The position numbers were made by a program, and so were the translations under genes. 64,000 nucleotides of DNA, taken from NCBI GenBank assembly GCA_004431415.1, contig QPMI01000113.1, positions 124,001-188,000 of the forward strand, written 5' to 3'. Shown here piece by piece: positions 42,766 through 60,129 of this stretch. This DNA is from Cyanophora paradoxa CCMP329. Its lineage: Eukaryota; Plantae; Glaucophyta. The notes under the pieces are model-generated. The model did no database searches, was not told where the DNA came from, and saw nothing but the letters and a program-made list of their open reading frames with translations. Position 1 is the first letter of the stretch, and each line of letters starts with the position of its first letter.

Positions 42766-43267
42766 TGTTGTATACAGAAGGAAGGTAGACGCGACACCTC
42801 CGCTTCGCTCCGGTGTCGACCTTCCATCTGTATTTAGTTACTTCTAACGATTTTGTTTCAGTTTTCTATAGATTTGCGATATTGAGGTGTAAACTGAGTA
42901 TTAACTGAGCTCTGAGCACGGCCCCCTTGCGTGCGGTCTGAAGCTATCTTAAACAGTTAATTCAGGTTCATGCTTAGCCCTGTAGCGGGTGATACTGTTG
43001 AGGAAGCTGCCCGAGCTCGTGACGATTATGCTTTAGCACACACGCCGGAGTCAGATAAACCATTTCTGAAACTGAACTTTCCTCCGGTAGTTTGAATCGA
43101 AACGGTTGAGGGGTTTCCGATTTATCTATTTTTTCGATTTTAGCACGGCCCCCCTGCGTGCGGTCTGAAGCTGAACCGTTTACGATTTCAGGAGATTAAC
43201 CTCCGAGTTTGCGTAAGGTCTGAGGCTATCTCGATTAGTTAATTCAGGTTCATGCTTAGTCGATTGC
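42766..43267 (+). repeat. Left TIR region of element 2
   Basis: 43140-43267 is the exact reverse complement of 59782-59909. 42913-42968 matches 59911-59966 imperfectly. The outer part is only patchily similar. Confidence 0.9.
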
Positions 43268-43544
43268 TACAACTAGTTCTGATCCGTGGTTTTAGCTACT
43301 TTCAAGGGAGAATCGACGAAGTTCTGGGTTAATGCCACAGAATGGGAAATCCCAGTAAATGAAATAAAATCGAGTAATGGTGTAACGTGGTGTAACGGTG
43401 AAAGTGTTCTTGTTTTCTGTTTTTTTTTCAAACGTAACTAATAAATGCGCTTTAAAGGAAAAGCGATCTCTAATAATAGGAAACAAACAAAGATTGTGCG
43501 CGTTGAAATTCGAAATTAAAATCTGATCCCTATTTTAACCGAAA

Positions 43545-46500
43545 ATGGAACGTGAATTGCTGCGAGCTGAGATCCGAGCCGTGGCTCAGAATCTATATGA
43601 ACGTGGCTATTTGCATAAGGCATTTTGGGGTTCGTTGATCAGGGAAACACACGATGGAACGCAAGTGCCCACATTGAGATCGGATTTGGCGATTTTGCTT
43701 CGTTTAAGTGCCACGAATCCACCAGCACGAAAGCTGGGAAGGCCAGGAGTAGCGGGGCATTTTGCACGAGAGCAGGAGGCACGTCTAGTTGCAGAGGGAG
43801 CAAATGAGCAGTTCGAGGGAATTCCAGAACTATTCCAGGAGCCCGAGAATCAAGTAGGCGAATTCGACGAGATATTAGCTGAAATCGCACGTCATTATAC
43901 ACATCGCGCATATCCAGGACTGCGATTTACGAAGGACACATTGGATATAGAGCCGACGACATCGCAGGATAGGGTCAAAGAATTGACGCTAGCTTTTCTG
44001 CAGGAGCTTCGTGTTCCCGAGAGGATTGGCTCGAGTATCATTGTGCGCTTCCGATTCACGCAAATGCAAATGTACCGGACGCAACTCGTAACAATTGAAG
44101 ATAACACGATGCAGACGTTACTTGCTAATATCGGAGAGAAGATGGAAAGATGGATGTTCGACCAACAGCCGTATGAGAGCGGTGATATCTGGGAAGTCGG
44201 GCAAATCGAAGTTTTAATTGCCGAAAATGCAGCTGGTGCTTTAGGAAACGTCCCGAAGTTGCCGTTTGGTGGGAAGGCTTTGACGATGAACAAAATCTAC
44301 TGTCCTATATCCGCCGAAGACAATTGCGTGCTTGAGTGTTTTGAATACGTTAAACTGGACCCCGGGCGTTTGGGATTGGATAGAATTTACAAGAAGCTTC
44401 AGAGAGTCGATTACAATTCAATTCGGGCTCGGCTCAGATTATCAAAAGGAATGATATCGATTGACGTAGCTACGATTAAGAACCTAAGTTCTCACTACAG
44501 GATCGACGCAAGTGTTTTTGAGTGGAAGGAAAATAAATTCGCCCTGCTATTTGGAACCGAGAATGGGTACACAAAACGTGCGTATCTGTGTGCTGTCGAC
44601 GCTCACTGTTATCTAATTAAAGACCCCAGAACCTGCGATATGGAGAAATGCAGAGCCTGTGGAAGGATGCAGCACGAGATCGCGAAGCACAAAGAGACGT
44701 GTAAATTTTGCTTCAAATGTCGGTGTGCTTATAATCCAAACGAGGATCACTCGACTAAATGTTCTGAATCGATTCGTAACAAGAGCGTGATCGAGAGGAA
44801 GATCAAGCAGTGTGAACCCGAAACCGTTTTTACAGCTCTCAGGAGTGTTTTAGCTGCTGATTTCGAAACGTTTGCTTCAAATGGAAAAAGCCACGTTCCA
44901 TATGCAGTTGGTGTGGATATTGTTAGAGAAGGCGAAATCATAGGGACGAATGAATTTTCAGGAGAACAGACGTTGAACCAGTTTATGCAGTGGCTTGACA
45001 ACTGGAAAGATAAAACGACGCTGGTATTTTTCAATGGCTCTGGATTCGATTTGATATTTATATATCGCTGGCTCGTTGAGAATCGTCCGGACAGCAAGGT
45101 GACTGTTATGCGATCTTCGGGAAAGATCAAGAGTATGAAATGGAAGACGTTAGCAGGTGGTGAGTTTACTAGTTTCGACCCGTGTTTGCACATACAGAGC
45201 TCATTGAAGCAAGCCGTCAAAGACTATGAATGCACAACGCAGAAGGGGGACTTTGATCACAAATTGATAAAAACCTGGGATGACGTGGAAAGACATCGTG
45301 AGTCCTGGAGTGAGTATCTTCGAGCTGACGTGCGTTCATTGACAGAGCTATATATGAGTTATGCAAGAACGTGCTTTGAGATGTTTAGCATTAATGTGAA
45401 TTCACAAAAGACACTCACAGCAAGTGCGATGGCATTTCAGATTCACAGGCAGTTGATGAAGGCTGACGTTCATTTGCCGAAATATAAAGAGGATCAGGTC
45501 TTCCGTCAGGCAATTTACGGGGGCCGCTGCTTGCCATTCAAGCGTAAATTCAAATCGAAGGGACCTGACGATTATTTGGTGGATCTAGATGTCGTTAGTT
45601 TATATCCGACTGCAATGTATGAGAACTATTTTCCGACGGGTAAATTTCAACATATAATAGATACGGCTAAACTAGAGCGATTCAGGACACTGATGCTGGG
45701 CCGTAAGATGGAGCAGCTATTTATTGCCCGGATCAGTGGAAACATCCCGCAGGATTTGACGCTGAGTCCACTTCCACGACACGAGTCGAATTTGGGCTGG
45801 TCAAACCTGAAACCAATCGAAAAAGAAATGTACACGTCGGTGGATTTATACAGGGCTTTAGCGTTGGGGTTTGAGATCACAGAAGTTCACGAAGTTTACC
45901 TATTTGAGGGTAAGGACCGAATGTTTAAAGATTATATTGAGAAGCTCTATTGTTTGAAAGCCCGTTCAAGGAAAGGTACGGCTCAGTATGCTACGTCTAA
46001 GATTCTACTGAATGGGCTTTACGGTAAGTTTGCACAGCGTCCAGTAATCGAAACGACGGAACTTGTATCAGACTACAAACGTTTCAAGGAAATACAGAGG
46101 GCATCGACAATTACAGATATTGATATAGAGAGCGATACCAGGATGTATGTGACGTATGAGATTCCCGAAAACAGGCGTGACTTTTGTGTATCAAAACCCT
46201 GCTTCGTAGGAGCATTTATATTGAGCTATAGCCGTGAGATTATGGACCGGGTTTTAATTAAAATGAACTCGTACAGGGATCCCGCTGCGATGCCGTGGTA
46301 TACAGATACAGATAGTATGATCGTGCATAGAAAGTATGCGGCTCTCTTGCAGGACTGTATGAAGCAGCCGTACTCTGTGGAAGGGTTGTCTGAAGAGGAA
46401 GCGAACAAGACGATTTGCGAAAAAGAACTAGGCAGACTTGACTATGATATCAAGGGTAAGATTGTGGAGGCGTATTTCGTCGGACCGAAAGTATACTGTT

Positions 46501-46877
46501 GCTATTTTATTCAAGCAAACGGGGAGGCAGATCTGCACGTCAGAGCGAAGGGAATTCCACAGAGCTGGGTAGAAGAGAACTGGTTACCAGACAAAGAGAA
46601 ACCGATGGAGAGGAAGGGGGCCCTCGAAAGTCGCGTTACCTTGGAAGCGTTTAGTAACATGCTCGAGCATCATTACCAGCCGAAGTGCACGGTCGAATCA
46701 AAACTTGCTCGGGTTTTTAAACCGAATACAAAGCAACGTCAAGCTGGTATCGAATTCAGCTCGATCATTCAAATACCGTTTTCCCGCATTCTAAACAAGA
46801 CCGAGTATACGAAGCGAAAGATAATACCGGATGAATATTATACGACGGTTCCTCATGAATACTGCGGAGCAGATTAA
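43545..46877 (+). CDS. Protein-primed family B DNA polymerase with intact exonuclease motifs
   Basis: ADFET, FNGSGFD, YLRADV, DVVSLYP, KILLNGLYGKF, YTDTDS, GPKVY, RAKG; long N-terminal region. Confidence 0.95.
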   Translation: MERELLRAEIRAVAQNLYERGYLHKAFWGSLIRETHDGTQVPTLRSDLAILLRLSATNPPARKLGRPGVAGHFAREQEARLVAEGANEQFEGIPELFQEPENQVGEFDEILAEIARHYTHRAYPGLRFTKDTLDIEPTTSQDRVKELTLAFLQELRVPERIGSSIIVRFRFTQMQMYRTQLVTIEDNTMQTLLANIGEKMERWMFDQQPYESGDIWEVGQIEVLIAENAAGALGNVPKLPFGGKALTMNKIYCPISAEDNCVLECFEYVKLDPGRLGLDRIYKKLQRVDYNSIRARLRLSKGMISIDVATIKNLSSHYRIDASVFEWKENKFALLFGTENGYTKRAYLCAVDAHCYLIKDPRTCDMEKCRACGRMQHEIAKHKETCKFCFKCRCAYNPNEDHSTKCSESIRNKSVIERKIKQCEPETVFTALRSVLAADFETFASNGKSHVPYAVGVDIVREGEIIGTNEFSGEQTLNQFMQWLDNWKDKTTLVFFNGSGFDLIFIYRWLVENRPDSKVTVMRSSGKIKSMKWKTLAGGEFTSFDPCLHIQSSLKQAVKDYECTTQKGDFDHKLIKTWDDVERHRESWSEYLRADVRSLTELYMSYARTCFEMFSINVNSQKTLTASAMAFQIHRQLMKADVHLPKYKEDQVFRQAIYGGRCLPFKRKFKSKGPDDYLVDLDVVSLYPTAMYENYFPTGKFQHIIDTAKLERFRTLMLGRKMEQLFIARISGNIPQDLTLSPLPRHESNLGWSNLKPIEKEMYTSVDLYRALALGFEITEVHEVYLFEGKDRMFKDYIEKLYCLKARSRKGTAQYATSKILLNGLYGKFAQRPVIETTELVSDYKRFKEIQRASTITDIDIESDTRMYVTYEIPENRRDFCVSKPCFVGAFILSYSREIMDRVLIKMNSYRDPAAMPWYTDTDSMIVHRKYAALLQDCMKQPYSVEGLSEEEANKTICEKELGRLDYDIKGKIVEAYFVGPKVYCCYFIQANGEADLHVRAKGIPQSWVEENWLPDKEKPMERKGALESRVTLEAFSNMLEHHYQPKCTVESKLARVFKPNTKQRQAGIEFSSIIQIPFSRILNKTEYTKRKIIPDEYYTTVPHEYCGAD

Positions 46878-47979
46878 GCAAGCTTATTACGATCCGGAGA
46901 AGGGTTTACAGTCAGCGAACAAGCTAGCGAAACGTCTAAATTTGCCCCTAGCTCGGGTCCAGGAGGTTTTGCAGAAGCTAAGTACGGCGCAGCGGTTCGC
47001 GAAACCGGAGAAGGAGACCCCAATGACTAGTGTGACTTACGACGAGGCCGAGAAGTTTTATCAGCTCGATTTGATCGACGTGAGCGCCTATGCTAGAAAA
47101 AACAAAGGCGTCCACTTTATTATGAACGCTGTAGACGTGGTTACTCGCAGAGCCTATAGCGTCCCAATGAAAACGAAAACAGAGGGAGCTATACTGAAAG
47201 CGTTGCAGAATATAATCGATGAAATGCCGTCAAAACCAGATATCATACAAACAGATAACGAATTCAAGGCTACGACGACATATCTATTAAAGCAGCAGGG
47301 CATTATTCACAATACAGGGGATCCTCGGAGACCGCAGGCAAATGGTAAAATTGAACGATTTAACGGGACTTTGAAACGAATAATCGGCAAATATATGGAG
47401 GCATTTGATACGGATCGATACATTGACGAGCTACCGAAATTTTTGAAGAATTACAATAGTTCGGACCATCGTGTGATTGGGATGACGCCCGATGATGCTG
47501 CCGAGCACCCGGCAAAGGCGTTAGCTCAAGGCGATTTGCAGCGGGAAACCTACGAGCAAGCACATTATGTCAAGGAAGCCTCATTCAAAATCGGAGACCG
47601 TGTACGAGTTAAACTATCGAAATCCACGTTTGATAAATCAAATAAACCGAACTACTCGGCGGCGATTTATACGATCGAATCGATTGGAGGTTACGGTCCA
47701 CTTTTGAAGTTCACGTTGACTGGTTATGAGGGTCCACCAGTGACGTATCAAAAATTGCTGAAGGTTTCCGCAAGTTCGGAGATTCGACGACCTGGGCAAG
47801 CTATGGGCAGAGCATTGGCAAAACGAAAGCAGGCTCTAAACCTAATGCACGAGAACCTCGACAAAGCCCAGTTTCAAAAAGAAAAGAAACTAGCACGTCT
47901 GCAGAATCAGTTGCTAGTGAGCGGGACGAGTGCGCTAGCTCGGGGAGCAAACACACGGCTCAGGCAGCGGGGACAGTGA
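46855..47979 (+). CDS. rve DDE integrase, Polinton type
   Basis: YQLDLID, VDVVTR, IQTDNEF, NGKIERFNGTLK, YNSSDHRVIGMTP, FKIGDRVR. Confidence 0.95.
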   Translation: MNTAEQIKQAYYDPEKGLQSANKLAKRLNLPLARVQEVLQKLSTAQRFAKPEKETPMTSVTYDEAEKFYQLDLIDVSAYARKNKGVHFIMNAVDVVTRRAYSVPMKTKTEGAILKALQNIIDEMPSKPDIIQTDNEFKATTTYLLKQQGIIHNTGDPRRPQANGKIERFNGTLKRIIGKYMEAFDTDRYIDELPKFLKNYNSSDHRVIGMTPDDAAEHPAKALAQGDLQRETYEQAHYVKEASFKIGDRVRVKLSKSTFDKSNKPNYSAAIYTIESIGGYGPLLKFTLTGYEGPPVTYQKLLKVSASSEIRRPGQAMGRALAKRKQALNLMHENLDKAQFQKEKKLARLQNQLLVSGTSALARGANTRLRQRGQ

Positions 47980-48271
47980 TTCCAGCAGTCTTCAACGTTG
48001 ATTCAAGGACAGCAATTCGGTTCATTATACGAGAGTGATATTTTTTCGATGCTTCATAATGCTTCTCTTTATGGGCTGATTGATATTTGCTGCTGTGCTC
48101 AATGTGTCTTTTGCGGTATTCAGGGTCAGAGGAATATCTCCGTCGATGATACTCTGCTTTCTTAGCACGTCTCATTGCGAGAATCTCTGGTGTCACTTCG
48201 ATAGGCTTACGGCCAGGTTTACGTTTCGTTTGTTTCACGGCGGTTTCAATGTTAGCGTAACTGCCTTCCAT
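47960..48271 (-). CDS. Small basic, probably DNA-binding protein
   Basis: KRKPGRKP (AT-hook-like) followed by a K/R/Y-rich helix. Confidence 0.55.
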   Translation of the reverse strand: MEGSYANIETAVKQTKRKPGRKPIEVTPEILAMRRAKKAEYHRRRYSSDPEYRKRHIEHSSKYQSAHKEKHYEASKKYHSRIMNRIAVLESTLKTAGITVPAA

Positions 48272-48358
48272 GTTCCTCTCAATATATAGAATCGCATTTT
48301 ATTTAAATAGAAAAATCGCGCCAAATCCCATGATTTATAATCTTTCTTTAGTTTTAAA

Positions 48359-48673
48359 ATGGAAACCACCTCTGAGCGACGAAGCATCCCCACGATTCGA
48401 TTTGGCAAATATAAGGGAATGACTCATCTAGAGATAACATACCAAGATCTTGATTATGCGAAATACTTGACGGGATGGAAGGACTTACGAGAGTACGATC
48501 GCAAACAATTCGAGAAATCTATTGAACTATTAAGGAACACATCCCGCGACACCGTGAGAGTTCAAGTAGAAAAAGAGAGGGCGATTAGGATAGAGCAAGC
48601 AAAACGTGTGGATTACAAACCTGAGATCTACGACCCGATTGATGATTTGCCGGACTTCCCACCTGCTGCTTAA
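48359..48673 (+). CDS. Small protein with an FGKYKG motif (DUF3820 / exonuclease X C-terminal-like)
   Basis: IRFGKYKGMT…DLDYAKYL. Confidence 0.6.
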   Translation: METTSERRSIPTIRFGKYKGMTHLEITYQDLDYAKYLTGWKDLREYDRKQFEKSIELLRNTSRDTVRVQVEKERAIRIEQAKRVDYKPEIYDPIDDLPDFPPAA

Positions 48674-48694
48674 GTTTGATATAAAGAAATCGCG

Positions 48695-49276
48695 ATGATA
48701 TATTACAAAGAAAGCAGGATGGAAATCCCGGATGGTGCGATCAGTGTGCCGATCGGCGGAATTGTCAATGGACGTCGTGCTATTGTGACTTATGCAATTG
48801 TGAGCCAAATTGATGCAGAGAGAGTGCTCGAGAAGAAATGGTGTCTTGATAAATATGGGTATCCTAGAACAGGTATCAAAAAGGACAATGGAAAAACAAC
48901 AACGATTAATTTGCATCAGTTTGTTCTCGGGAATACTGAAATAGGTTTCTCTATCGATCATATCAATCATAATAAACTCGATAATCGCCGTGAGAATCTT
49001 CGTCTTGCAACTGGGAGACAGCAGCAGCTGAATCAGAACCGTCGAGTATCTAACACGTCTGGTTTTATCGGTGTTAGCTTCAAAAAAGAAAACAACAAAT
49101 GGCAAGCTAATTTTATGATCAACGGGTCACAGAAACACATCGGTCTATTTTCTACCGCTGAACTCGCAGCTAGAGCTCGCGACATATATGCTATTGAACA
49201 CACATCGGAGGCCGATCGGCCGTTCCTACAAATGAATTTCAGAACCTCACCTTCTTTCCACCGAGGGCATTTCTGA
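48695..49276 (+). CDS. HNH endonuclease with C-terminal AP2 domain
   Basis: IDHINHNKLDNRRENLR; NTSGFIGVS…KWQA…HIGLF…AARARD. Confidence 0.92.
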   Translation: MIYYKESRMEIPDGAISVPIGGIVNGRRAIVTYAIVSQIDAERVLEKKWCLDKYGYPRTGIKKDNGKTTTINLHQFVLGNTEIGFSIDHINHNKLDNRRENLRLATGRQQQLNQNRRVSNTSGFIGVSFKKENNKWQANFMINGSQKHIGLFSTAELAARARDIYAIEHTSEADRPFLQMNFRTSPSFHRGHF

Positions 49277-49931
49277 GTTTCGCCAGATCCGAGTTAGCTT
49301 CGACGTCATTCGGCTGACCGGATTTTACTTTTTGATCGTCAACTGCCTGTTTGCCCTTCTCCTCCTCGTTAGCAATATATTTAACATCCGGTTTGTCGAT
49401 GGGGCGAAGTTTATACATCTCGCTTCGTAGCATAGATTTAATTCGCTCTTTCTCTTTCTTGTCCTTGACGAACGATTCGACGCTAGCGGACCTGGACTCC
49501 AGCTCGTTCACCTTAGCTAGTAGCGTGTCGTAGCGGTCGTCAGACAAGCTGCCTCGGGCTGCGCCCTTTTTCCACGAACTATCATTCTGAGGTTTAGCCA
49601 ACTTGGGGCCAGTGTAAGTCGCTTCGCTAGCAAGAGCCCGGATTACTTTCATAGCATCCTCGTCGATTTCACCGGAATTCATATCCTCCAACGTTTTGAG
49701 CTGTTGCTTTCGGTCATCCGTAGCGGATGCTTTAGAAGTAGCACCTGCAATTGTACGAGCTAGTTGGGGCTGAATCGTTGGCTGAGAGCTGCTCTCACCG
49801 GAGGGGGAGCTCACTGCTAGGCCCCCAGTGACTCCGGATTCTTGCTCCGCTAATTCCGAAGGAGGTATTTCACTCTCTCGCTCGAGGCGAGCTCGGGTTC
49901 GTCTAAAACCAGCTTTTGGAACGCCGCGCAT
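49239..49931 (-). CDS. Hypothetical charged, low-complexity viral protein
   Basis: 230-aa ORF directly downstream of the ATPase and co-oriented with it. Confidence 0.6.
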   Translation of the reverse strand: MRGVPKAGFRRTRARLERESEIPPSELAEQESGVTGGLAVSSPSGESSSQPTIQPQLARTIAGATSKASATDDRKQQLKTLEDMNSGEIDEDAMKVIRALASEATYTGPKLAKPQNDSSWKKGAARGSLSDDRYDTLLAKVNELESRSASVESFVKDKKEKERIKSMLRSEMYKLRPIDKPDVKYIANEEEKGKQAVDDQKVKSGQPNDVEANSDLAKLRNALGGKKVRF

Positions 49932-49937
49932 CTTGTA

Positions 49938-50687
49938 TTATCTAAGAAGAAGATATTTAAAATTCTTCTTTTTTAGATCTGTCTTAGCGGAGACGTTCTT
50001 AGGCTCTTCCTCTTTTTTAACCCACTTTGAAAACGTAAATTTCTTATCCTCTTGAGCTTTATCTACGCCCCAGACAGCGTCATATTTAGTATCGTCGAAC
50101 ACGATGGCCTGATAGTCTTTAGCGTGGGTTTGGAACATATTGAAGAACTCTTGTTTCGGCAGATGCGAGAATTCACGGAAGATCGATTCGAATTCGGTTT
50201 GATTTGAATAACTAAAGAAAAAACAATAGTCAGAGTTGCTACGAATCGTTTGAGATAATCCGGTTAGCTTCTGAGTCATTAGGACCGTCGATATATTGAA
50301 GTGACGACCCTGCGTAAACAATCTGTTGACCTCTTTTGAATGTTTTAGGTCAACCGTGTCGCTAGCACTGACTAGATCGTCCAGCACCAGCAGTATTTGT
50401 GGCGTCGGTTTTTTGGCAATTTTTAGCTTTCGTTGCTGATCGATAATCCCCTCAACTATGCTGGGTTCGAAATCACTATAGACGTTAGAGGAGATCCCTG
50501 AGTATTCGCCGTTGAAGCTTGTAGCACTGAAGACGTAGACTGAATCGATTCTAGGGTATAGCAACCTCAAAAGGTGACGCGTGCAATAGAACGTTTTCCC
50601 CGAATTGGATTTACTTATGAAAATGGCCTTGAACGGTATTCGCATATTACTGGCGTCAAACTGCACCAGGTTGGAGGAAGCAGACAT
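49938..50687 (-). CDS. A32/FtsK-like genome packaging ATPase
   Basis: Walker A SKSNSGKT, Walker B LLVLDD, LFTQGRHFNIS, Q…IRSNSDY. Confidence 0.93.
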   Translation of the reverse strand: MSASSNLVQFDASNMRIPFKAIFISKSNSGKTFYCTRHLLRLLYPRIDSVYVFSATSFNGEYSGISSNVYSDFEPSIVEGIIDQQRKLKIAKKPTPQILLVLDDLVSASDTVDLKHSKEVNRLFTQGRHFNISTVLMTQKLTGLSQTIRSNSDYCFFFSYSNQTEFESIFREFSHLPKQEFFNMFQTHAKDYQAIVFDDTKYDAVWGVDKAQEDKKFTFSKWVKKEEEPKNVSAKTDLKKKNFKYLLLR

Positions 50688-50735
50688 ACCTGTTTATCTG
50701 CTGACATTTAAAAAAAATAATCGCGGAGTTGCGAG

Positions 50736-52133
50736 CTAGAGATTGACCCTGCGGAGACCAGAGGCATCCACGATGAGAACAGAGTGCATCAGAGCGCGGA
50801 CCTGGACGACGTAACGAGCAGTAGAGCTGTCAGCAGGGTTATACAGGGTCAGGAACGCTGAACTGGAGTTCGTCAGGTCTACGTAACCACTCTGAGAGGC
50901 ATTCTGCACCGATTTATCCCCGGCTAAACAGAAGGGGAGGCCGGACAGCACGAAGCGGTTCTGCTGCGGGTCCATGTTCGAGCACTTGAAACGGTCCGCT
51001 ATGAGCTCAGCTCCTTGAAGAAGGGACACTGGTTCGTTCGAGAAGAGACGCTGGCCGTTGAGCTCGACGGTGAAAGTAATCTCTTTATCGTTTACCAGAG
51101 TCTTAAGAACAGAATGAGCGCCAGTGTTGACTCCGACTGCAGCAGCATCACGGATAGAGATAAAGAGGCCGTAAACGAGACCTGAGATTTGACTGAGATT
51201 GATACGGGTAGGAGCGCTCTTAGCGGCGAAAGCCACGTTTTGGACGTCGGCATATCCAATATCAGTTGCGGGAATCGCGATGCCGCTAGACTTGACCTTT
51301 TCGATTACGGAGGCGAATGTGGCCTCATCGGTATTGACCATGTAAGCAATGAGTCGAGGGCTAGTCATTGTAGGAGCAGACGGGGTAGTTGCTGAAATAG
51401 CTGGGGTCGGATTTAGACGAGCATTAGCGATCGTTCCAGCTATTACGGTTGGAAGAGCATCGCTCGTGGGAATTCCATCATCAGCAGTAGTAGCGCCGGC
51501 TACGGCATTTACTGTGAGAGTGCGACTGCCGTAGCTAGTTTCGACGTAGCCCTCGGTGCGGGCACGGAACCAGACATCGACGACAATCTCGCCGGACAGG
51601 GCCCCAATCGGAAGCATGCTCCCCTCCCAAGGCACAGGCACTTTAACCGTGAACGTGCCTCCCCCTCGGTTGCTACCTTGCACTGGGGCTCCGTGGGTCC
51701 AGCCGCCGCTCCGGAAATTCTTTTTCAGGGTGGCCTCGTCGTTAGCAATCAGGGGGTAGTGAACTAGGAAATCCTCAGGCACCACGTAGGAGTAACTCCC
51801 GTACTTAATCTCCAGACGCTTCACGAGAGCCCCCACTGAGCGCAAATAGCCGTTTCGAATCAGATCCGTGTCGGTGGCAAACGCCGTCAATTCGGGGAGA
51901 GTGAACTGGAGCTCTAAGCCCTGGCAGAAATTGTAGCGGGGTAGGTAGAAACTGACGCGATTTCCAAACGCATCTGATACGTCGTTGCTGGGATTGATCG
52001 TGACGCGAATTGGCTTGGTTTGGGATGAGAGTCCCAGCATGAGCTCATTTGAGAGGAAGAACGCTTTCGCGTCCTCAGGGGTTGTGAGCAGCTCTTTCAA
52101 GCTAAGGCGCTGCAGATTTGTTGTGACGTCCAT
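50736..52133 (-). CDS. Putative double jelly-roll major capsid protein
   Basis: ~465 aa, beta-strand rich (FGNRVSFYLPR, LQFTLP, LVKRLEIKYG, LPIGAL…IVVDVWFR). Adjacent to the ATPase and penton. Likely start is MDVTT. Confidence 0.8.
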   Translation of the reverse strand: MDVTTNLQRLSLKELLTTPEDAKAFFLSNELMLGLSSQTKPIRVTINPSNDVSDAFGNRVSFYLPRYNFCQGLELQFTLPELTAFATDTDLIRNGYLRSVGALVKRLEIKYGSYSYVVPEDFLVHYPLIANDEATLKKNFRSGGWTHGAPVQGSNRGGGTFTVKVPVPWEGSMLPIGALSGEIVVDVWFRARTEGYVETSYGSRTLTVNAVAGATTADDGIPTSDALPTVIAGTIANARLNPTPAISATTPSAPTMTSPRLIAYMVNTDEATFASVIEKVKSSGIAIPATDIGYADVQNVAFAAKSAPTRINLSQISGLVYGLFISIRDAAAVGVNTGAHSVLKTLVNDKEITFTVELNGQRLFSNEPVSLLQGAELIADRFKCSNMDPQQNRFVLSGLPFCLAGDKSVQNASQSGYVDLTNSSSAFLTLYNPADSSTARYVVQVRALMHSVLIVDASGLRRVNL

Positions 52134-52168
52134 GCTTTGATTTAACTCAGAGAAAATAAATTTGACTC

Positions 52169-53110
52169 TCAATTTGCCGATCCGACGTAGGGCCAGATTT
52201 CCTTAGTTTTACGTCTCAGATTCAGTTTAGCGAGCTCCTTAACTGGATCGCAGTTGGGCTCATCATCTCCGTAGTGTATTTCAAACGTCAGATAAATAGG
52301 GGATTCTATGAGGGCTAAACTCTGTCCCGAGTCTAGGACCTCGATCGTGAAGCTCTTGAGATCAGTACGCGAGTAAAAATATTTACTAATTGGTTGGCTC
52401 TCCGTGGAATCAAAGAAAACGGTCTCTCCTTGTTTGAGCTCTTGCGGAATCGATATACGTGCAAAGTAGCTGACTCCTAAGGGGCAGTGAATTAAATCTC
52501 CGAGCTCGGCCACTCTCAGGTACACATGGCTATCTGGGGTGCTGTCGATCGCAGTGAATCCTGTGATCACGTCCAAAAGTGGCGCAAGGCTAACGTTCTT
52601 TGAATATATCGGTAGGATGGATGGTAGCCCCAGTAAGCGAGCTGTCCTTTGAGCCCTCTCCAGTGCTTGATAGTTTCGAATTTCCTCAGAGCCTGGTTCA
52701 CCCTCTGGGACTACCAAAGCGATTTTGAATTCACCAGCTCGTTCAAAAACGATGCGAGCCGCAGCAGTGTCGTAACGGCATGAGATATCAGAGCCATCTA
52801 TTGCTAATAGATCATTTATCTCCGCGCTCAGAGATGCAGACGTGTAATTGTCTCCGGGAATTGTGATATGATCCCAGGGCACGTAGTCGCCGTTATGATA
52901 CCTGGAATAGTACAGATGAGTCTTGAACGTCATATCTAGAGTAGCAATCTCGGCGGGCACGGACTGCATAGTGTTCGGTATTTCTGCCTGCAGCAGCCTC
53001 ACCTGCTTTACAGCTTCGTAGCCTCTAGGGAGGGTCACCTTGAAAAGGCTTGGTCCTGTCTCCAGGGAGTCCGCCATGGTTGAGATAATTCCAATTATTT
53101 CGACCGGCAT
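52169..53110 (-). CDS. Putative minor capsid (penton) protein A
   Basis: FKVTLP…VRLLQAEIPNT, GDNYT…L, YLRVAEL, FARISI, LKSFTIEVLD, LTFEI. Confidence 0.7.
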   Translation of the reverse strand: MPVEIIGIISTMADSLETGPSLFKVTLPRGYEAVKQVRLLQAEIPNTMQSVPAEIATLDMTFKTHLYYSRYHNGDYVPWDHITIPGDNYTSASLSAEINDLLAIDGSDISCRYDTAAARIVFERAGEFKIALVVPEGEPGSEEIRNYQALERAQRTARLLGLPSILPIYSKNVSLAPLLDVITGFTAIDSTPDSHVYLRVAELGDLIHCPLGVSYFARISIPQELKQGETVFFDSTESQPISKYFYSRTDLKSFTIEVLDSGQSLALIESPIYLTFEIHYGDDEPNCDPVKELAKLNLRRKTKEIWPYVGSAN

Positions 53111-53134
53111 TTTAATTATGTAATCGAAAAAGAA

Positions 53135-54031
53135 ATGGCGTCAATACGAGTCAACTTTGATAGCGTTGATCGCATTCCTGGGGAGAGCGAGTCGAACTGG
53201 ACATTACGTTTAAATAATCCTATCGTTCACCCTAAAGCTGTACGTCTTACGCAGGCGGAGATCGCAAATTCTCTGTACACAAGCAAAGCGGGGGAATACC
53301 TAGAGGTCATAATCGCAGGTACAGCCTGGAAACTGGGCATATTTGAACCAGGAGCGGTAACTACCGGCAACTACGGGAGCACTACTATCTACAATTTTGG
53401 TTTATCCTACGAGCTTCCAGGAGCTGGTTTATTTAAGATCTATCTGGATGCGGAGACGATGAAAGTAACAAGCTACTGCTCTAGGGAGTGCGAGGTTATA
53501 TGTAGGTTCCAAAGCCTCAGTCAGTTACTAGGAATTGAGCCCAATGTTTCCTATCTTATCGTACCTTTCGAAATACCAGCTGCGGCGGGCATCAGAGCAA
53601 CAACTGCCCCCGAAAAGTGGCTGAGTGTAGACAGACTCCCGGTTAATCTGGATCACCCCCTCTACGGGGACGACTTTAGCGACAAGATCCAAGCAATCAC
53701 GTTAGGATATGGCCTGGAGTTTCCGAATATCGTCGATATGAATCGCTTACAGTATCTGTTTCTGGTATGTGAAGAGCTCGCCCCTTTCGCTAGCAGCGTC
53801 AATTCAGGTAGAGACGGCACCTGCACTAACGCTATTGCTAGAATTCAAATCTCTAGGGAAGTCGGAGAGTTCGTTTACATTAATAGAGAGCTATCCTCTG
53901 TCGTCGAATGGATTATAATTAATCAGCGCAGAGTATTCGACTCTCTGAGATTTAAACTAGTCGACCGTGAGGGCTCTGAGGTTTCGTTTAATGGTTTACG
54001 ATGGTCTGGACAATTACAGTTCTTGATCTAG
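53135..54031 (+). CDS. Putative minor capsid (penton) protein B
   Basis: FDSVDR…SNWTLRLNNPI…VRLTQAEIANS, YLFLVCEEL, IARIQI, LRFKLVDREG…FNG…W. Confidence 0.75.
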   Translation: MASIRVNFDSVDRIPGESESNWTLRLNNPIVHPKAVRLTQAEIANSLYTSKAGEYLEVIIAGTAWKLGIFEPGAVTTGNYGSTTIYNFGLSYELPGAGLFKIYLDAETMKVTSYCSRECEVICRFQSLSQLLGIEPNVSYLIVPFEIPAAAGIRATTAPEKWLSVDRLPVNLDHPLYGDDFSDKIQAITLGYGLEFPNIVDMNRLQYLFLVCEELAPFASSVNSGRDGTCTNAIARIQISREVGEFVYINRELSSVVEWIIINQRRVFDSLRFKLVDREGSEVSFNGLRWSGQLQFLI

Positions 54032-55521
54032 CGGATATACCTCCCCCGCAGATCAATTCGGAAAGCATTTGCGGATTCGAAAACCATCGTGTGAATTTGA
54101 ATCCAGGTGATCACTTTAGGGCTAATTAAATGCACGTCGCTGTGAGTTAAATCAAACCCAATCATATCCGGAACCAACGCTTTCGTTGCTTTTAGCACCG
54201 AGTTCTCAAATAAACGCACCTCTCCAGAAGCTGCTAATTCAAAGCCCGCAGAGGTTTCTAAATTGAATTCCGTCATTATTCCCGATGTGAAGCTAGGTCC
54301 GTAGATTACAACCTGGTGCAATTCAAACGTGTAAGGGAATTGAATCTTGAGCCACCCGAATTCGCTCGTCTGGAATCCAAAAAGGTCCGGGCGAGCTTTC
54401 TCTGGATTTCGCTCGGCGATAAAGCTACTGGCCGAAAATGCTATATCCTGAATTAGATACCAGTTTGCATCAAACGGCGGATTCAATGTCAACGTGCTCG
54501 ATATGGTGGTAGAATCGAGATTTGTTATCTCGTAGTTAGCTAAAAGGAATCCGCATAAACCTCGAAACATTAGGGCTACTTCCGGCTGGGATAACCAAGA
54601 ATCAGTCGTAGATATTAGGTAGCTGATGTTACTGGAGCTAGCGTCGTCTAATTTAGACATCACGGCAGCCGGAAGGGGAACCGATAACCTGTAATATCGT
54701 TTCAGGTTACGATCGCTATCAATCGGTAGTAGCTCCAGCATTTGCAAGTGACTCGACAGCTCGGAGCTTGCCATCAGCATATTGATTATTGGACTCCCGG
54801 TTAAACTGAGGACCCACTGCAGCGCCCCCCACGATGCAGTCTCATTATAAGAATAACCAGCAGAGTTGAGGTCAGAGCTCTGGACTTCGCCGCAGGAAAT
54901 ACTCACTAGCACAACCGGTTCATCGGCGTCGTATAACGTACGGCTATAGCTATAAGCAGCAACAGAGGGGCTGTTAAGAGTTGCTATCGCTCCGTCAATT
55001 AGGCAGCGAGTTCCCAGTTGTTTCGGAGGAAAGAACGTCTGAGCCGCTGAGCTAGCCCTGACTGCTTCTTTAATCAATGTGGTAGAGTCGGATCCTGTTC
55101 GAGTGAAATTGACGGGCTGCATCTTAACCGTATCGAAACTCGTGATTAATAGGTCCTTTGTCGCTTCTGCAATTGTATAATCACTAGCTACTGTGTTTAG
55201 AACCGTCTCTAGTGGTCCTGCATCGTAGCGACTGCCGCTGACAATTGAGAAAAGACTTCGTGGGTTTGCAAAGATTAGAGGGAGATGGGTTTGATACAGC
55301 TCAAGGATATCGTGAGCATTAAATCGATAGGACAAATTGGATCCTTGCTCCGGAGGTATCGTCAGACCCGCCGCTATAATCGCTCCGGTGCTAGTTCCAC
55401 TGAATAAATCAAATAGAAGAGGTACCGCCTTTCCGGTGATTAGTTCGATTCGTTCCAAGATACGAGCGATTACGATGCCGCGGGCTCCGCCACCAGAAAG
55501 CGATAGAATTACTTTGACCAT
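54028..55521 (-). CDS. Patatin-like phospholipase with a C-terminal discoidin/F5-8C-like extension
   Basis: LSLSGGGARG, GTSTG, ASSAA…FFPP, IDGA; tail SASS…PEKAR…WLKIQF…VVIYG…RIDLRG. Confidence 0.88.
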   Translation of the reverse strand: MVKVILSLSGGGARGIVIARILERIELITGKAVPLLFDLFSGTSTGAIIAAGLTIPPEQGSNLSYRFNAHDILELYQTHLPLIFANPRSLFSIVSGSRYDAGPLETVLNTVASDYTIAEATKDLLITSFDTVKMQPVNFTRTGSDSTTLIKEAVRASSAAQTFFPPKQLGTRCLIDGAIATLNSPSVAAYSYSRTLYDADEPVVLVSISCGEVQSSDLNSAGYSYNETASWGALQWVLSLTGSPIINMLMASSELSSHLQMLELLPIDSDRNLKRYYRLSVPLPAAVMSKLDDASSSNISYLISTTDSWLSQPEVALMFRGLCGFLLANYEITNLDSTTISSTLTLNPPFDANWYLIQDIAFSASSFIAERNPEKARPDLFGFQTSEFGWLKIQFPYTFELHQVVIYGPSFTSGIMTEFNLETSAGFELAASGEVRLFENSVLKATKALVPDMIGFDLTHSDVHLISPKVITWIQIHTMVFESANAFRIDLRGRYIR

Positions 55522-55533
55522 CTTATATTGAGG

Positions 55534-57264
55534 ATGTCGTATTTAATTAAAAAGCCTGTCGTTTTGAGAACAACCCCCAAAACTCAGGACGAATCCGAGC
55601 TAATCAACATACGCGTACTGGGATCCACATTAATCGACTACAACGCAGATAAGGATATCCACCGAACCGAATCAAATAGACCTGCAGCTCTCATCCTCCG
55701 AAACACTCACATTGCCGCACCAGACGTCGCTCAGCGGTTCTGTCTTGGTCCAACCGAGAACTACGTCGCTGAAATCATCGGCACTAGGGAGGTCCCCAGA
55801 CATCTACGAATCGCTAAAACCGGAGCCATTGCTAAATATGACAAGGGCCGACTGATATTTCGAGTCCAAAATGATAGGGGCGTTCACTCGACGGGTTTGA
55901 GGATTTTCGATGAATCCTCCGCTTTCTTAAATGCTACCGCTGTCGAAGTGACCGGGAGATTGTTTATCAATTCATCACAGCTCGTGAGTAAGCTGCACAG
56001 CTTCCCTCTCGATTTGCTCACCCCCATTGCGATTGCAGCTAACTTGCCGTTTAATTTTGACGCTGCGGCACTAAACACAGGACCGGCATACCGTCTAGAT
56101 TTAGCTAACGCGTTTCAGCTGGGAACGGTACTGAATGAGAGCGATAGACACTTGATCCCTTCTCAAAATAATACGTACGATTTGGGACTTAGGACCCGAC
56201 AGTGGCGAAACATTCACGGGCAGAATATATTTCAAGACGGCAAAAGGGTCGTCACCGAGCAGACACTGATCGATATTATAAACTATTACTTCATTCCGAT
56301 CCCGATTCCGATACCGCCAATTCCAGGACTGCCTAAAAAACCAGATAATGGCCCTGGAAAGGAACGTACTGCTGATGATGACCTGCCTTGGGGGCAATTA
56401 ATCGTATCCTGGGAGAACGTCAGGAATAAACCGGTTTTAAATCCCTATAAACCCCCTCATGAATGGTATCTGCCCCACGATATTGATACGGTGCCCTTAG
56501 AATTATACGAAGATACTACCACTATAGAACAAGAGCTCCCAGACGGTTTAGACCCTCAGGAACTAGCTTATGAAGAGCCTGTGGATGAGCACGAAGCTTT
56601 ATTGCCTGACGGGTTTGATCCTCAACTCTACGAATTGTATATAAATTGGGATCAGCTCTACGACAAACCAGAGACGTTTCCCCCGGGCCCTCATACACAC
56701 AGCTGGCCGGAGATCACGGGTAAACCGGACCTGTTTCCTCCGATTCCGCATGAGCACCACTGGGCTGATATCATCGATCCTCCTGAGACGTTCCCTCCAG
56801 CTGCACATACACACCCTTGGAGCCAAGTTACGGAGAAACCAGTGTTCTCTAGCGTTGAACCCGTTAATATGGGAGTGAGCTTATTTCAAACTGACGCCAC
56901 TGTAGAGCGCCTATTCTTAAACGAGCACTACGTACATCGCCTTGGAAATCGAGCGAATAGCGCAATGGAAGGGGCGCTCTATATTAGACCTCCTAGGGAC
57001 GTGCAGGTAATTTACTTGGTATCCTTTTCAGCTGCAACTCAAAATATTGCAGCTGGCGATAATGCATTTGCATATCTATACAAAAATGGTGCATACACAA
57101 ATGTAAGAGGATGGACGTCCACCATATCGGCAACTGTTTTTATTAATTTGGCATTTACAACATTCGTCAGCTTAGCAGCTGGGGAATATGTCGAAATGTA
57201 TTGCCAAAATTTACACACTAATCAATCCATAGTCTTTTCAGTTGGCTTGATAACTGCAACGTAA
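55534..57264 (+). CDS. Putative fibre/spike protein with phage-tail-like repeats and a C1q-like tip
   Basis: IPSQNNTYDLG…W; repeats HTHSWPEITGKP, HEHHWADIIDPP and HTHPWSQVTEKP; tip YLYKNG…VSLAAGEYVE. Confidence 0.7.
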   Translation: MSYLIKKPVVLRTTPKTQDESELINIRVLGSTLIDYNADKDIHRTESNRPAALILRNTHIAAPDVAQRFCLGPTENYVAEIIGTREVPRHLRIAKTGAIAKYDKGRLIFRVQNDRGVHSTGLRIFDESSAFLNATAVEVTGRLFINSSQLVSKLHSFPLDLLTPIAIAANLPFNFDAAALNTGPAYRLDLANAFQLGTVLNESDRHLIPSQNNTYDLGLRTRQWRNIHGQNIFQDGKRVVTEQTLIDIINYYFIPIPIPIPPIPGLPKKPDNGPGKERTADDDLPWGQLIVSWENVRNKPVLNPYKPPHEWYLPHDIDTVPLELYEDTTTIEQELPDGLDPQELAYEEPVDEHEALLPDGFDPQLYELYINWDQLYDKPETFPPGPHTHSWPEITGKPDLFPPIPHEHHWADIIDPPETFPPAAHTHPWSQVTEKPVFSSVEPVNMGVSLFQTDATVERLFLNEHYVHRLGNRANSAMEGALYIRPPRDVQVIYLVSFSAATQNIAAGDNAFAYLYKNGAYTNVRGWTSTISATVFINLAFTTFVSLAAGEYVEMYCQNLHTNQSIVFSVGLITAT

Positions 57265-57301
57265 CTAACAGAGACAGATTAATTTCTTTCCTATAAGATA
57301 A

Positions 57302-57574
57302 ATGGCTCACATATATCAAGTTGAGCTCACTGAGTCCGAGAACCTTGGAATGCAATTCGTGGCGTTATCGGTGCAAGAATGGGTGACAAACCTACTAAAA
57401 TCCCGTGCTTCTTCAGCGATCGAGGAAATCATTGCAATCGAAATTCAGTCATGTATAGCAAATGGGGTTCAAATCCCGAATACAAAGGATGCAATTGTCT
57501 CGCAGGCATTTCAACGTGCAACTGTAAAAACGGTAGCTGAAAGAAATCCTATCTGGCCGCCAACTAATCCCTAA
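57302..57574 (+). CDS. Small protein downstream of the fibre (possible chaperone or partner)
   Basis: 90-aa helical ORF starting at TAAATG; resembles small phage proteins that follow fibre genes. Confidence 0.55.
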   Translation: MAHIYQVELTESENLGMQFVALSVQEWVTNLLKSRASSAIEEIIAIEIQSCIANGVQIPNTKDAIVSQAFQRATVKTVAERNPIWPPTNP

Positions 57575-57607
57575 GTATCGTAGAATAGTTTCTCTCCCTC
57601 ATATTAA

Positions 57608-58447
57608 ATGAGCGAATTCAACCGAGTACAGCTTCCAATATATTCCCTTGGCTCCCCCGCAATTCACATGCGAACCCACGAGGTCGCCGATGAGGTCCGG
57701 AATCTCGAATCGACTGAACGTCCTAATTCCAGCAACGCATTCGATAGCCGATCGATATTGCGAATTAAAGAACTCAGGGCCGATAAAAACGCCGGAGTCG
57801 TCAAAACCACTCGCCTGCTAGTCACTAACGCCGATTTTCAGCAGAGTACTGTCGGTGGCCCCGATGCTTACTCAGTTCCTCTCAAGAGCTTGAATTTCGA
57901 CCAATTTACTGCAGCCGCTACGATCCGCTCTGGGGGTCTCGTCGTCGGTGGGGGTGCCCGAGTCAGCGGAATGCTGAGCTGCTCTGCCCTTGTTAGCGAC
58001 GTTCCTGACACGCTGCTGCAAAATGCCGAGGACCCCCAGCGAGTTAGGACCTACGGCATCACTAGCTACTTGCCGTTCGTACATGCTATTAAGCAGCGGC
58101 TAGTAGCTCAACCTGCGGGCTGGTCAGCAGGACAGGGGATCGTTTCTGAGACCCTCCAAATTCCTACGTTTATGCAATCGCTCTGCAAAACTCGCGACGG
58201 CATTGCTGGGCATACCTACGCTTTTATTGTTCAGCCGCGTTTGCATTTTGGCGTCGGATATTGTACGAACGAAGGGGCTGGAGGATATATATTGCACTGC
58301 AACAACCCTGGCTTCTACGATATCCATATCTACGGCAGGAGGACAGACCCGGCTGCAATAGCTTCGCAACGAGGAATTAATGAAGGCGATATCCAAGCCA
58401 CGTCCTTCTATCAGGAGCCCGATGTCATAGATAATCCGACGGCCTAG
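57608..58447 (+). CDS. Hypothetical virion protein, paralog 1
   Basis: Shares ILRxxELRxDKNxGxxKTTxLxVxN, TxRSGG…RVxG and RxRTY with 58488-59318. Confidence 0.65.
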   Translation: MSEFNRVQLPIYSLGSPAIHMRTHEVADEVRNLESTERPNSSNAFDSRSILRIKELRADKNAGVVKTTRLLVTNADFQQSTVGGPDAYSVPLKSLNFDQFTAAATIRSGGLVVGGGARVSGMLSCSALVSDVPDTLLQNAEDPQRVRTYGITSYLPFVHAIKQRLVAQPAGWSAGQGIVSETLQIPTFMQSLCKTRDGIAGHTYAFIVQPRLHFGVGYCTNEGAGGYILHCNNPGFYDIHIYGRRTDPAAIASQRGINEGDIQATSFYQEPDVIDNPTA

Positions 58448-58487
58448 CTCTAGACAGCTATTTTCTTTTTGACTACCTTCATAGTAA

Positions 58488-59318
58488 ATGGCTGATGCCG
58501 TCGAAAGAATTGTCGCACCGACGCTGACCCTAGCAGCCCCCGCTAACCACGTTCTGCAACATGCTGTTAGCGACGACATAGCTGGGTTTGAATCGACAGA
58601 GCAAACCCCGACATTAAACACGTTCAGGGACAATCACATTCTGAGATTAGGGGAGCTGCGTTGCGATAAAAACGGGGGCAAAATCAAAACGACGTCCTTA
58701 ATGGTTTCCAATTCCAATTTCAATTCCGCCTACGGAGCTGCCGATTCTTGGGATTCAGCGAACCCAATTCATACGTTCGTTTACGCCGAACGCAAAGGGG
58801 CTCTCACTGTGAGGTCCGGAGGGGCATATATCGGCTCCGGCCTTAGGGTAGGCGGTTGCATCGGGGCCCCTATTCTAGTAAATGACGCTCCTAATCCAAT
58901 CGATGAAAATACTAGAATTAGGACCTACGTTCCCTCCTTTAATGCCCCTCTAGTTTGCTCTATCTTCATGATCATAGCGAATCCTCAAACCGCTCAAATT
59001 GATAGCTTGGTCGAAATTGGCGATCATTATCGTATGGTCGTTGAGATACCCCCTGATCTATACGGAGTCTGTAAGCGCAATGACGGGGTCCCTCGAATCA
59101 CCGCCCAAATAGTCCCTATAGATAACTTCGGTTCCGGCTTTCATGCGCAATCGATCGGTTTGTTGGATTATCAGTTCCTTGTGCGCGTCACTAGGCTAGG
59201 CAGCTATAAATGTATCCTGTACTGCGAGCGCAACGATGCTATAGCTAATGCTCACCGGTACGCGGAGTATGTGGGATCCAATCGCTACTTCCCAGTTCAA
59301 CAAGACATTGATCCCTAG
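58488..59318 (+). CDS. Hypothetical virion protein, paralog 2
   Basis: Collinear with the upstream paralog; GALTVRSGGAYIGSGLRVGG resembles fibre-shaft motifs. Confidence 0.65.
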   Translation: MADAVERIVAPTLTLAAPANHVLQHAVSDDIAGFESTEQTPTLNTFRDNHILRLGELRCDKNGGKIKTTSLMVSNSNFNSAYGAADSWDSANPIHTFVYAERKGALTVRSGGAYIGSGLRVGGCIGAPILVNDAPNPIDENTRIRTYVPSFNAPLVCSIFMIIANPQTAQIDSLVEIGDHYRMVVEIPPDLYGVCKRNDGVPRITAQIVPIDNFGSGFHAQSIGLLDYQFLVRVTRLGSYKCILYCERNDAIANAHRYAEYVGSNRYFPVQQDIDP

Positions 59319-59399
59319 GACGCAAGTGGTAGAGTCGTGGTGGAGCCGTGGTAGAGCCATCTAGCTACGTTTTCGTTTTTAATACCTCTCTAGCTATTG

Positions 59400-59732
59400 A
59401 TGGACTTCATCAAGAAGATAATCGACATGTTTCGAGTGCACGTCGTCAGCAAGTGCAAGTGCGAGTGCTGTGAAACAACGATCGAAATTGAGTTCTCGGA
59501 TACCGAAGGGAGTCGTACGCCTGAAGCAAGATCCCGAAATAATACACCTGTATCGTCACGATCAAACTCCCCTGTTAGCGGACGTGAATCGCCTGTAGAG
59601 CTACAGCTGCACGATGTCGATGGCAGACGCCTCTCATGGCCGGTGATCGCGCGATCGGATTCACCCGCGCCACGAAAACGGTCGCTAATCAAACTCTTGT
59701 TTGCTAAGCAGCGAGAAGGGCTTGCTGACTAG
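59400..59732 (+). CDS. Small protein with an N-terminal amphipathic segment, a Cys cluster and an SP/R-rich tail
   Basis: MDFIKKIIDMF…SKCKCECC. Confidence 0.5.
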   Translation: MDFIKKIIDMFRVHVVSKCKCECCETTIEIEFSDTEGSRTPEARSRNNTPVSSRSNSPVSGRESPVELQLHDVDGRRLSWPVIARSDSPAPRKRSLIKLLFAKQREGLAD

Positions 59733-59781
59733 CTCACCACCATCACCGATATAGCGATATTAAGTCATGCCATCACCACAC

Positions 59782-60129
59782 GCAATCGACTAAGCATGAA
59801 CCTGAATTAACTAATCGAGATAGCCTCAGACCTTACGCAAACTCGGAGGTTAATCTCCTGAAATCGTAAACGGTTCAGCTTCAGACCGCACGCAGGGGGG
59901 CCGTGCTAATAACCTGAATTATCTAATCGAGTTAGCCTCAGACCGCACGCAAGGGGGCCGTGCTCATTGCTCAGATGATGCTCAGATTACACAGCGATAT
60001 CAAAACAGACGTAAAAACAGTTTCGCTTCAGATTCAATTCAGAGGTAGCTAAATGAGCAAGGACCGGGGCCGCTGCGCGATAGGGGGTGGAGCGGAGCGG
60101 CGATTTGGGAGGTCCTTGCTCGTACAACA
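59782..60129 (-). repeat. Right TIR region of element 2
   Basis: Inverted counterpart of 42766-43267, lacking ~170 bp that is present on the left. Confidence 0.9.

Follow-up and report, generated by a model that had tools for sequence, protein, structure and literature searches.

A divergent patatin-family lipase with a predicted discoidin-type tail, encoded by an integrated polinton-like virus

By what means small DNA viruses of protists that lack an envelope get across membranes is an open question, and it is raised here by a single open reading frame (ORF) in a 64,000-nt stretch of eukaryotic DNA (hereafter, the window): does the lipase that it encodes serve a virus to breach the membrane of its host? 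The 497-aa ORF (54028..55521, minus strand) comprises a patatin phospholipase followed by a C-terminal tail predicted to be a β-sandwich. The earlier note on this DNA implied that such an enzyme, read as an entry factor, was new. This is not the case: discoidin (F5_F8_C) domains fused to patatin have been described in rhizarian and glaucophyte polinton-like viruses, with a role in entry or endosomal escape proposed (PMC12220804), and packaged entry lipases of polinton-like viruses were put forward in PMC4642659. With both the architecture and the entry hypothesis in print, the ORF described here is a divergent example, not a new concept.

The gene resides in a lower-GC island (approximately 41−54%, against 55−84% over the greater part of the flanking DNA between 12 and 43 kb), which is a 17,364-bp polinton-like virus (42766..60129) integrated in a GC-rich eukaryotic genome. 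The element has TG...CA ends, is flanked by a 6-bp target duplication (42760−42765 and 60130−60135) and is bounded by inverted repeats with 128-nt inner arms that are 100% identical and 91-nt outer arms that are 82% identical. Contigs of three of the four runs join 42758 to 60129, the unoccupied insertion site as it stands in further copies of the interrupted LINE retrotransposon; the LINE frame is open across the insertion site. This target is a multi-copy retrotransposon encoding endonuclease, reverse transcriptase and RNase H, spanning 40857−42765 and 60130−64000. In its region 60157−60759, contigs from two presumed RNA runs lack 58−94 nt with CT..AC ends, resembling minus-strand introns.

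Besides the terminal repeats and target duplication, the element displays genes typical of polinton-like viruses: pPolB (43545..46877, plus strand; PF03175, E-value = 6.5e−58), a retroviral-type (rve) integrase (46831..47979, plus strand; PF13683, E-value = 3.4e−07), an A32-like packaging ATPase (49938..50687, minus strand; PF04665, E-value = 4.5e−11) and, by feature likeness, a penton. An HNH-AP2 endonuclease is also encoded, and all core genes are open. The adenovirus-like maturation protease of canonical Polintons/Mavericks was looked for among the 16 element ORFs scanned, and no protease family was found. Judging from size and position, a 465-aa product (50736..52133, minus strand) is the putative major capsid protein. 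It has two relatives (P0115 and P0116, 75% and 35% identity), no Pfam or PHROG match, no credible PDB match and no relatives in viral or metagenome contigs; PDB matches obtained with its profile were rejected as short repeated stretches within designed or surface propellers.

Several further observations concern the ends of the element and its kin. Inside each TG...CA terminus there is an imperfect hairpin (42766−42845, plus strand, and 60045−60129, minus strand), the sequences differing between the two ends. For these hand-chosen intervals the folding energies are −17.6 and −18.0 kcal/mol (z = −5.2 and −4.4), and none of 200 shuffles was as stable. Terminal palindromes have been reported mostly in elements without pPolB (10.64898/2026.07.28.741278), whereas the element described here does have pPolB. 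The left terminal repeat is interrupted, between its outer and inner arms, by the remnant of an HNH-AP2 gene end (42979−43092), in which 19 of 29 residues are identical to the element's own HNH-AP2 gene; the left end may have arisen by recombination between two related elements. Positions 1 to ~9000 hold part of another polinton-like element, which runs off the start of the window, with a 1001-aa polymerase-like ORF (1446−4451) and an integrase-like ORF (5429−6871) that is 26% identical to the integrase of the first element. In addition, a ~7.2-kb contig in runs X1 and X4 contains short pieces ~76−80% identical to the polymerase region (44341−46858), pointing to a diverged sister element in the same samples.

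The genes around the patatin gene resemble virion genes. The patatin gene had been placed in the earlier note between a penton and the fibre, and this position stands up fairly well. On one side, convergent with it, lies a gene for a 298-aa penton-like minor capsid protein (53135..54031, plus strand), with an Atlas likeness of 0.97−0.98 to Preplasmiviricota and Nucleocytoviricota clusters, a measure of feature likeness and not of alignment. One of these clusters is named for the Sputnik minor capsid protein, with V18/19 in 26% of its members; the Atlas recognition score, 2012, is under the tool's mark of 2300. On the other side, divergent from the patatin gene, lies a gene for a 576-aa fibre-like protein (55534..57264, plus strand), matching PHROG tail fibre families (best E-value = 1.7e−12, over residues 409−443). 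A second penton-like gene (313 aa; 52169..53110, minus strand) has a weak match to DUF5901 (E-value = 0.063) and a short likeness to the other penton (E-value = 0.01); beyond these, it is read as penton-like from its motif. The two penton-like genes are head to head and divergent, 24 nt apart, with little mutual sequence likeness. Downstream of the fibre gene there are tandem paralogues (57608−58447 and 58488−59318; 279 and 276 aa), 31% identical to each other, for which Pfam, PHROG and NCBIfam yielded no convincing family match.

The patatin stop overlaps the penton stop by 4 nt, and its start is 12 nt from the fibre start. The patatin gene is on the strand opposite to both neighbours, a point absent from the earlier note, and therefore would share no transcript with them. 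The upstream regions, read by eye for a common late motif, contain loose T-rich stretches only. Contigs of all three DNA-type runs (possibly the source of the window itself) cover 53100−57400 in one piece, with no differences and no gaps, which argues that the ORF is not a local assembly error.

The first 330 or so residues of the ORF constitute the patatin domain (54532..55521, minus strand). The match to Pfam family PF01734 (E-value = 5e−23; 82.7 bits) is above the curated cut-off of 27.7, and residues 4−313 match potato patatin (1oxw; E-value = 4e−21). All three motifs named in the earlier note were confirmed by these matches and by conservation: the glycine-rich oxyanion loop GGGARG (residues 10−15; 55477..55494, minus strand), the nucleophile elbow GTSTG with Ser44 (residues 42−46; 55384..55398, minus strand) and the catalytic Asp176 in DGA (residues 176−178; 54988..54996, minus strand), the latter triplet being also present in potato patatin. 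An alignment with the 88 relatives that remained of 193 after dereplication shows residues G11, G12, G15, G42, T43, S44, G46, D176 and G177 to be common to all 88. At three other conserved positions the ORF is unusual, with Q161 in place of P (82 of 88 relatives), A178 in place of G (83 of 88; potato patatin also has A) and S209 in place of G (86 of 88). As judged from these sequence features, the product of the ORF is a patatin-family lipase whose catalytic pair, Ser44/Asp176, is intact. Hydropathy revealed neither a signal peptide nor a membrane anchor in the 497-aa protein, the highest 19-residue value (1.54) falling within the catalytic core.

The three substitutions might point to a passenger gene that is inactive, or in decay, within an integrated copy that is silent. 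The gene remnant in the left terminal repeat could be viewed in the same light, as could the finding that no second copy of the patatin gene at ≥80% DNA identity was present in the contigs aligned to 53100−57400. Against such decay speak the 497 open codons, the preserved catalytic residues, the open core genes, the perfect identity of the inner repeat arms over 128 nt, and GC content and codon use that, over either half of the gene, resemble those found elsewhere in the element. We therefore consider a decaying passenger improbable. The runs guessed to be RNA do not cover the patatin gene, which is not evidence on expression either way.

The tail (residues ~345−497; 54031..54489, minus strand) is more difficult to place. 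Sequence searches detected no relatives among 167 word-sharing candidates, none at E ≤ 0.001 among 1.84 billion representatives, none among PDB sequences at E-values up to 10, and, using tblastn, none in the 80 best viral loci or in 110 later ones. No Pfam family, PF00754 included, matched at E-values up to 10, no NCBIfam family matched, and PHROGs returned a single family annotated as of unknown function (E-value = 0.057). Atlas listed F5/8C clusters for the tail at 0.82 and 0.81, which can be used as a lead only because one-third of shuffled proteins reach 0.8. An F5/8C-like residue spacing is visible by eye. On a profile built from 22 bacterial F5/8C domains the tail scored 1.7 bits (hhalign probability 0.2%), a score barely above chance, reached by 6 of 1000 shuffles and exceeded by 2 of 82 real control segments; the single aligned piece is in register with the central strands of the family.

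A single-sequence model of residues 335−497 is all-β but poor (pLDDT 42, pTM 0.41), with loops below pLDDT 50 at model residues 1−46 and 75−134. Foldseek with this model placed a CBM32-bearing hydrolase at the top (E-value = 2.6e−3, TM ~0.4), followed by UBR4 and the factor VIII C2 domain, with no match at E ≤ 0.001; 44 of the 45 matches listed are entries holding a galactose-binding-like domain. A second, non-Foldseek search against 48,161 representative chains, which rests on the same model and is not independent, was headed by HSPC034/IFT25 (Z = 7.1, with an rmsd of 3.2 over 102 residues), followed by CBM32 domains (Z = 6.8) and discoidin I (Z = 5.8), with unrelated jelly rolls from Z = 5.5; none reached Z = 8, the level that, according to the tool, a common arrangement can give. 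Among predicted viral structures nothing was found at E ≤ 0.001. Going by the model, the tail probably adopts a galactose-binding-like (discoidin/CBM32-type) fold, of the F5/8C, CBM32, DOC or IFT25 branch. The discoidin-like tail of the earlier note is thus moderately upheld as a fold but not as a PF00754 match; likewise, the structure prediction and Foldseek search proposed there did rank galactose-binding-like folds first, but on a model of this quality and short of that E-value threshold.

What such a tail would bind is a related matter. It is acidic (pI 5.3) and devoid of cysteines, whereas phosphatidylserine-binding C2 domains are basic and closed by a disulfide, and for this reason it fits them poorly. 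This composition would also suit a jelly-roll-type tail that docks the lipase on the penton, fibre or capsid, with affinity for neither sugar nor lipid; the same fold mediates protein binding in DOC, PITH and IFT25, and it was IFT25/HSPC034 that headed the Z ranking. However, CBM32 domains are within one Z unit and so tie with IFT25, and the discoidin domains of these viruses are also found singly, paired or next to adhesin domains (PMC12220804). We give a purely docking tail a low probability.

Searches with the whole ORF produced 114 protein matches, all covering ≤70% of the query at ≤37% identity; among the 15 of them that were inspected, the longer ones have unrelated tails. No close whole-protein relatives were found in viral or metagenome contigs, nor did the 80 best viral loci contain any match to the core genes of the element. 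Based on sequence, the patatin domain belongs to the broad group of bacterial and plant patatins. A patatin phylogeny, advocated in the earlier note, was attempted with two quick trees (89 rows, and the 70 best of 169 rows) that included no host patatin and at most one from a giant virus. The trees disagree on the placement of the ORF and contain no supported (starred) sister group for it; consequently, no patatin donor can be named. Patatin-like phospholipases are likewise carried by other protist DNA viruses, the giant viruses (Nucleocytoviricota), where their function is described as not well understood (PMC12085832). The sole record labelled as a giant-virus genome (L044) in the first tree did not group with the ORF.

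Six of the seven matched phage records are phage WO of Wolbachia (31−33% identity over residues 1−302). Its patatin, which is of the same broad group and is likewise encoded next to structural genes, adjoins the tail module, within what is proposed to be a lytic cassette (PMC9203015). By analogy, a late, non-packaged lipase could weaken host or virus-factory membranes and release progeny, and a place among late genes fits exit and entry equally. The resemblance to phage WO is nevertheless incomplete: the phage enzyme, ~306 aa long, lacks a tail and is flanked by holin-like and ankyrin genes, whereas the 16 element ORFs scanned include no holin-like or ankyrin neighbour, the flanking genes are penton-like and fibre-like, and the trees do not group the ORF with WO-like sequences. 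Moreover, for a polinton-like virus that relies on a giant virus, lysis by the helper would bring about release, a deduction from 10.1101/2022.07.28.501842. A role in exit is rather unlikely in our estimate, yet not negligible.

A different role is suggested by the CBASS effector CapV, which shares fold and motifs with the ORF, as does plant patatin. The patatin could be a host-protective death effector, with the tail as sensor or localizer during giant-virus infection. The best NCBIfam match is indeed CBASS_lipase (NF041079, E-value = 1e−33), CapV structures match at E-values from 3e−12 to 8e−08, and PMC12220804 ascribes an antiviral role in protists to polinton-like viruses. But the NF041079 score of 116.8 bits is far under the 200-bit cut-off, so that the ORF falls outside the CapV family as defined there, and potato patatin matches better than CapV. 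In addition, no cyclase or sensor family was detected among the 16 ORFs of the element that were scanned, the gene is surrounded by structural genes, and the protein, compared with CapV, has an extra C-terminal domain. Defence is therefore a quite unlikely function. Its more specific form, in which a CapV-like patatin would arm the host and the tail would sense or dock on giant-virus material and trigger membrane destruction, making the enzyme an abortive-infection effector of the provirus instead of an entry factor, is less likely still.

The closest published parallel to the ORF remains the set of fusions in PMC12220804, which have the same domain pair, element kind and proposed role; compared with them, the tail described here is too divergent for Pfam. 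Table S6 of that study lists 89 lipase genes for 156 glaucophyte elements, 289 for 1393 rhizarian and 1298 for 1850 alveolate ones. In the paper itself, discoidin-bearing elements are counted (23 and 11), but neither fusion counts nor domain order are given. The words patatin, F5_F8 and discoidin are absent from the text of two of its supplements; its figures or deposited files may list this very element. An FA58C domain has also been listed for Tetraselmis elements (10.1101/2025.10.09.676808), and weak patatin-like matches have been noted in minor capsid proteins of divergent polyomaviruses (PMC11071296).

Other lipolytic genes of small integrating DNA viruses, namely Lipase_3/ABH of Gezel/PgVV-14T and the parvovirus-like PLA2 of Polintons, are likewise proposed to be packaged entry enzymes. 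In particular, diverse polinton-like virus lipases were suggested to be packaged and to aid penetration, with unrelated lipases recurring (PMC4642659), and the α/β-hydrolase lipase of Gezel/PgVV-14T was consistently found in purified particles (10.1101/2022.07.28.501842). The ORF described here differs from these in fold and chemistry (the Ser−Asp pair of patatins) and in its fused β-sandwich. In the literature searched, outside which most subscription papers lie, we found no experimental test of a polinton-like virus patatin.

Taken together, we see about an even chance that the patatin and its predicted discoidin-type tail form a particle-borne enzyme that breaches the host membrane at entry. 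In the proposed scenario, the lipase would be expressed late upon reactivation of the element and be carried by the particle, either inside it or on its surface. Its tail would then bind the vacuolar or endosomal membrane through a glycan or a lipid head group, and the Ser−Asp pair would cut membrane lipids, allowing the capsid or DNA to leave the uptake vacuole. We counted in favour of entry the catalytic residues conserved in 88 of 88 relatives, the position of the gene in the morphogenesis half of the element, the fold rankings of the tail, its Atlas lead to F5/8C at 0.82, the published fusion together with the lipase counts of Table S6, the Gezel/PgVV-14T lipase in purified particles and the recurrence of unrelated lipases. 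Counted against it were the pLDDT of 42 and pTM of 0.41 for the tail model, structure matches short of E = 0.001 and Z = 8, the near-chance outcome of the sequence test, the opposite strand, the substitutions Q161, A178 and S209, and the fact that for the patatin of phage WO, the best studied of those borne by viruses, a part in lysis and not in entry has been put forward (PMC9203015).

That Pfam fails to recognize the tail suggests that counts of these fusions made with Pfam are too low. The gene, intact and apparently present in a single copy, offers a clean candidate for an enzymatic assay. If the entry reading is true, patatin would represent a further lipase fold recruited by these viruses for membrane crossing.
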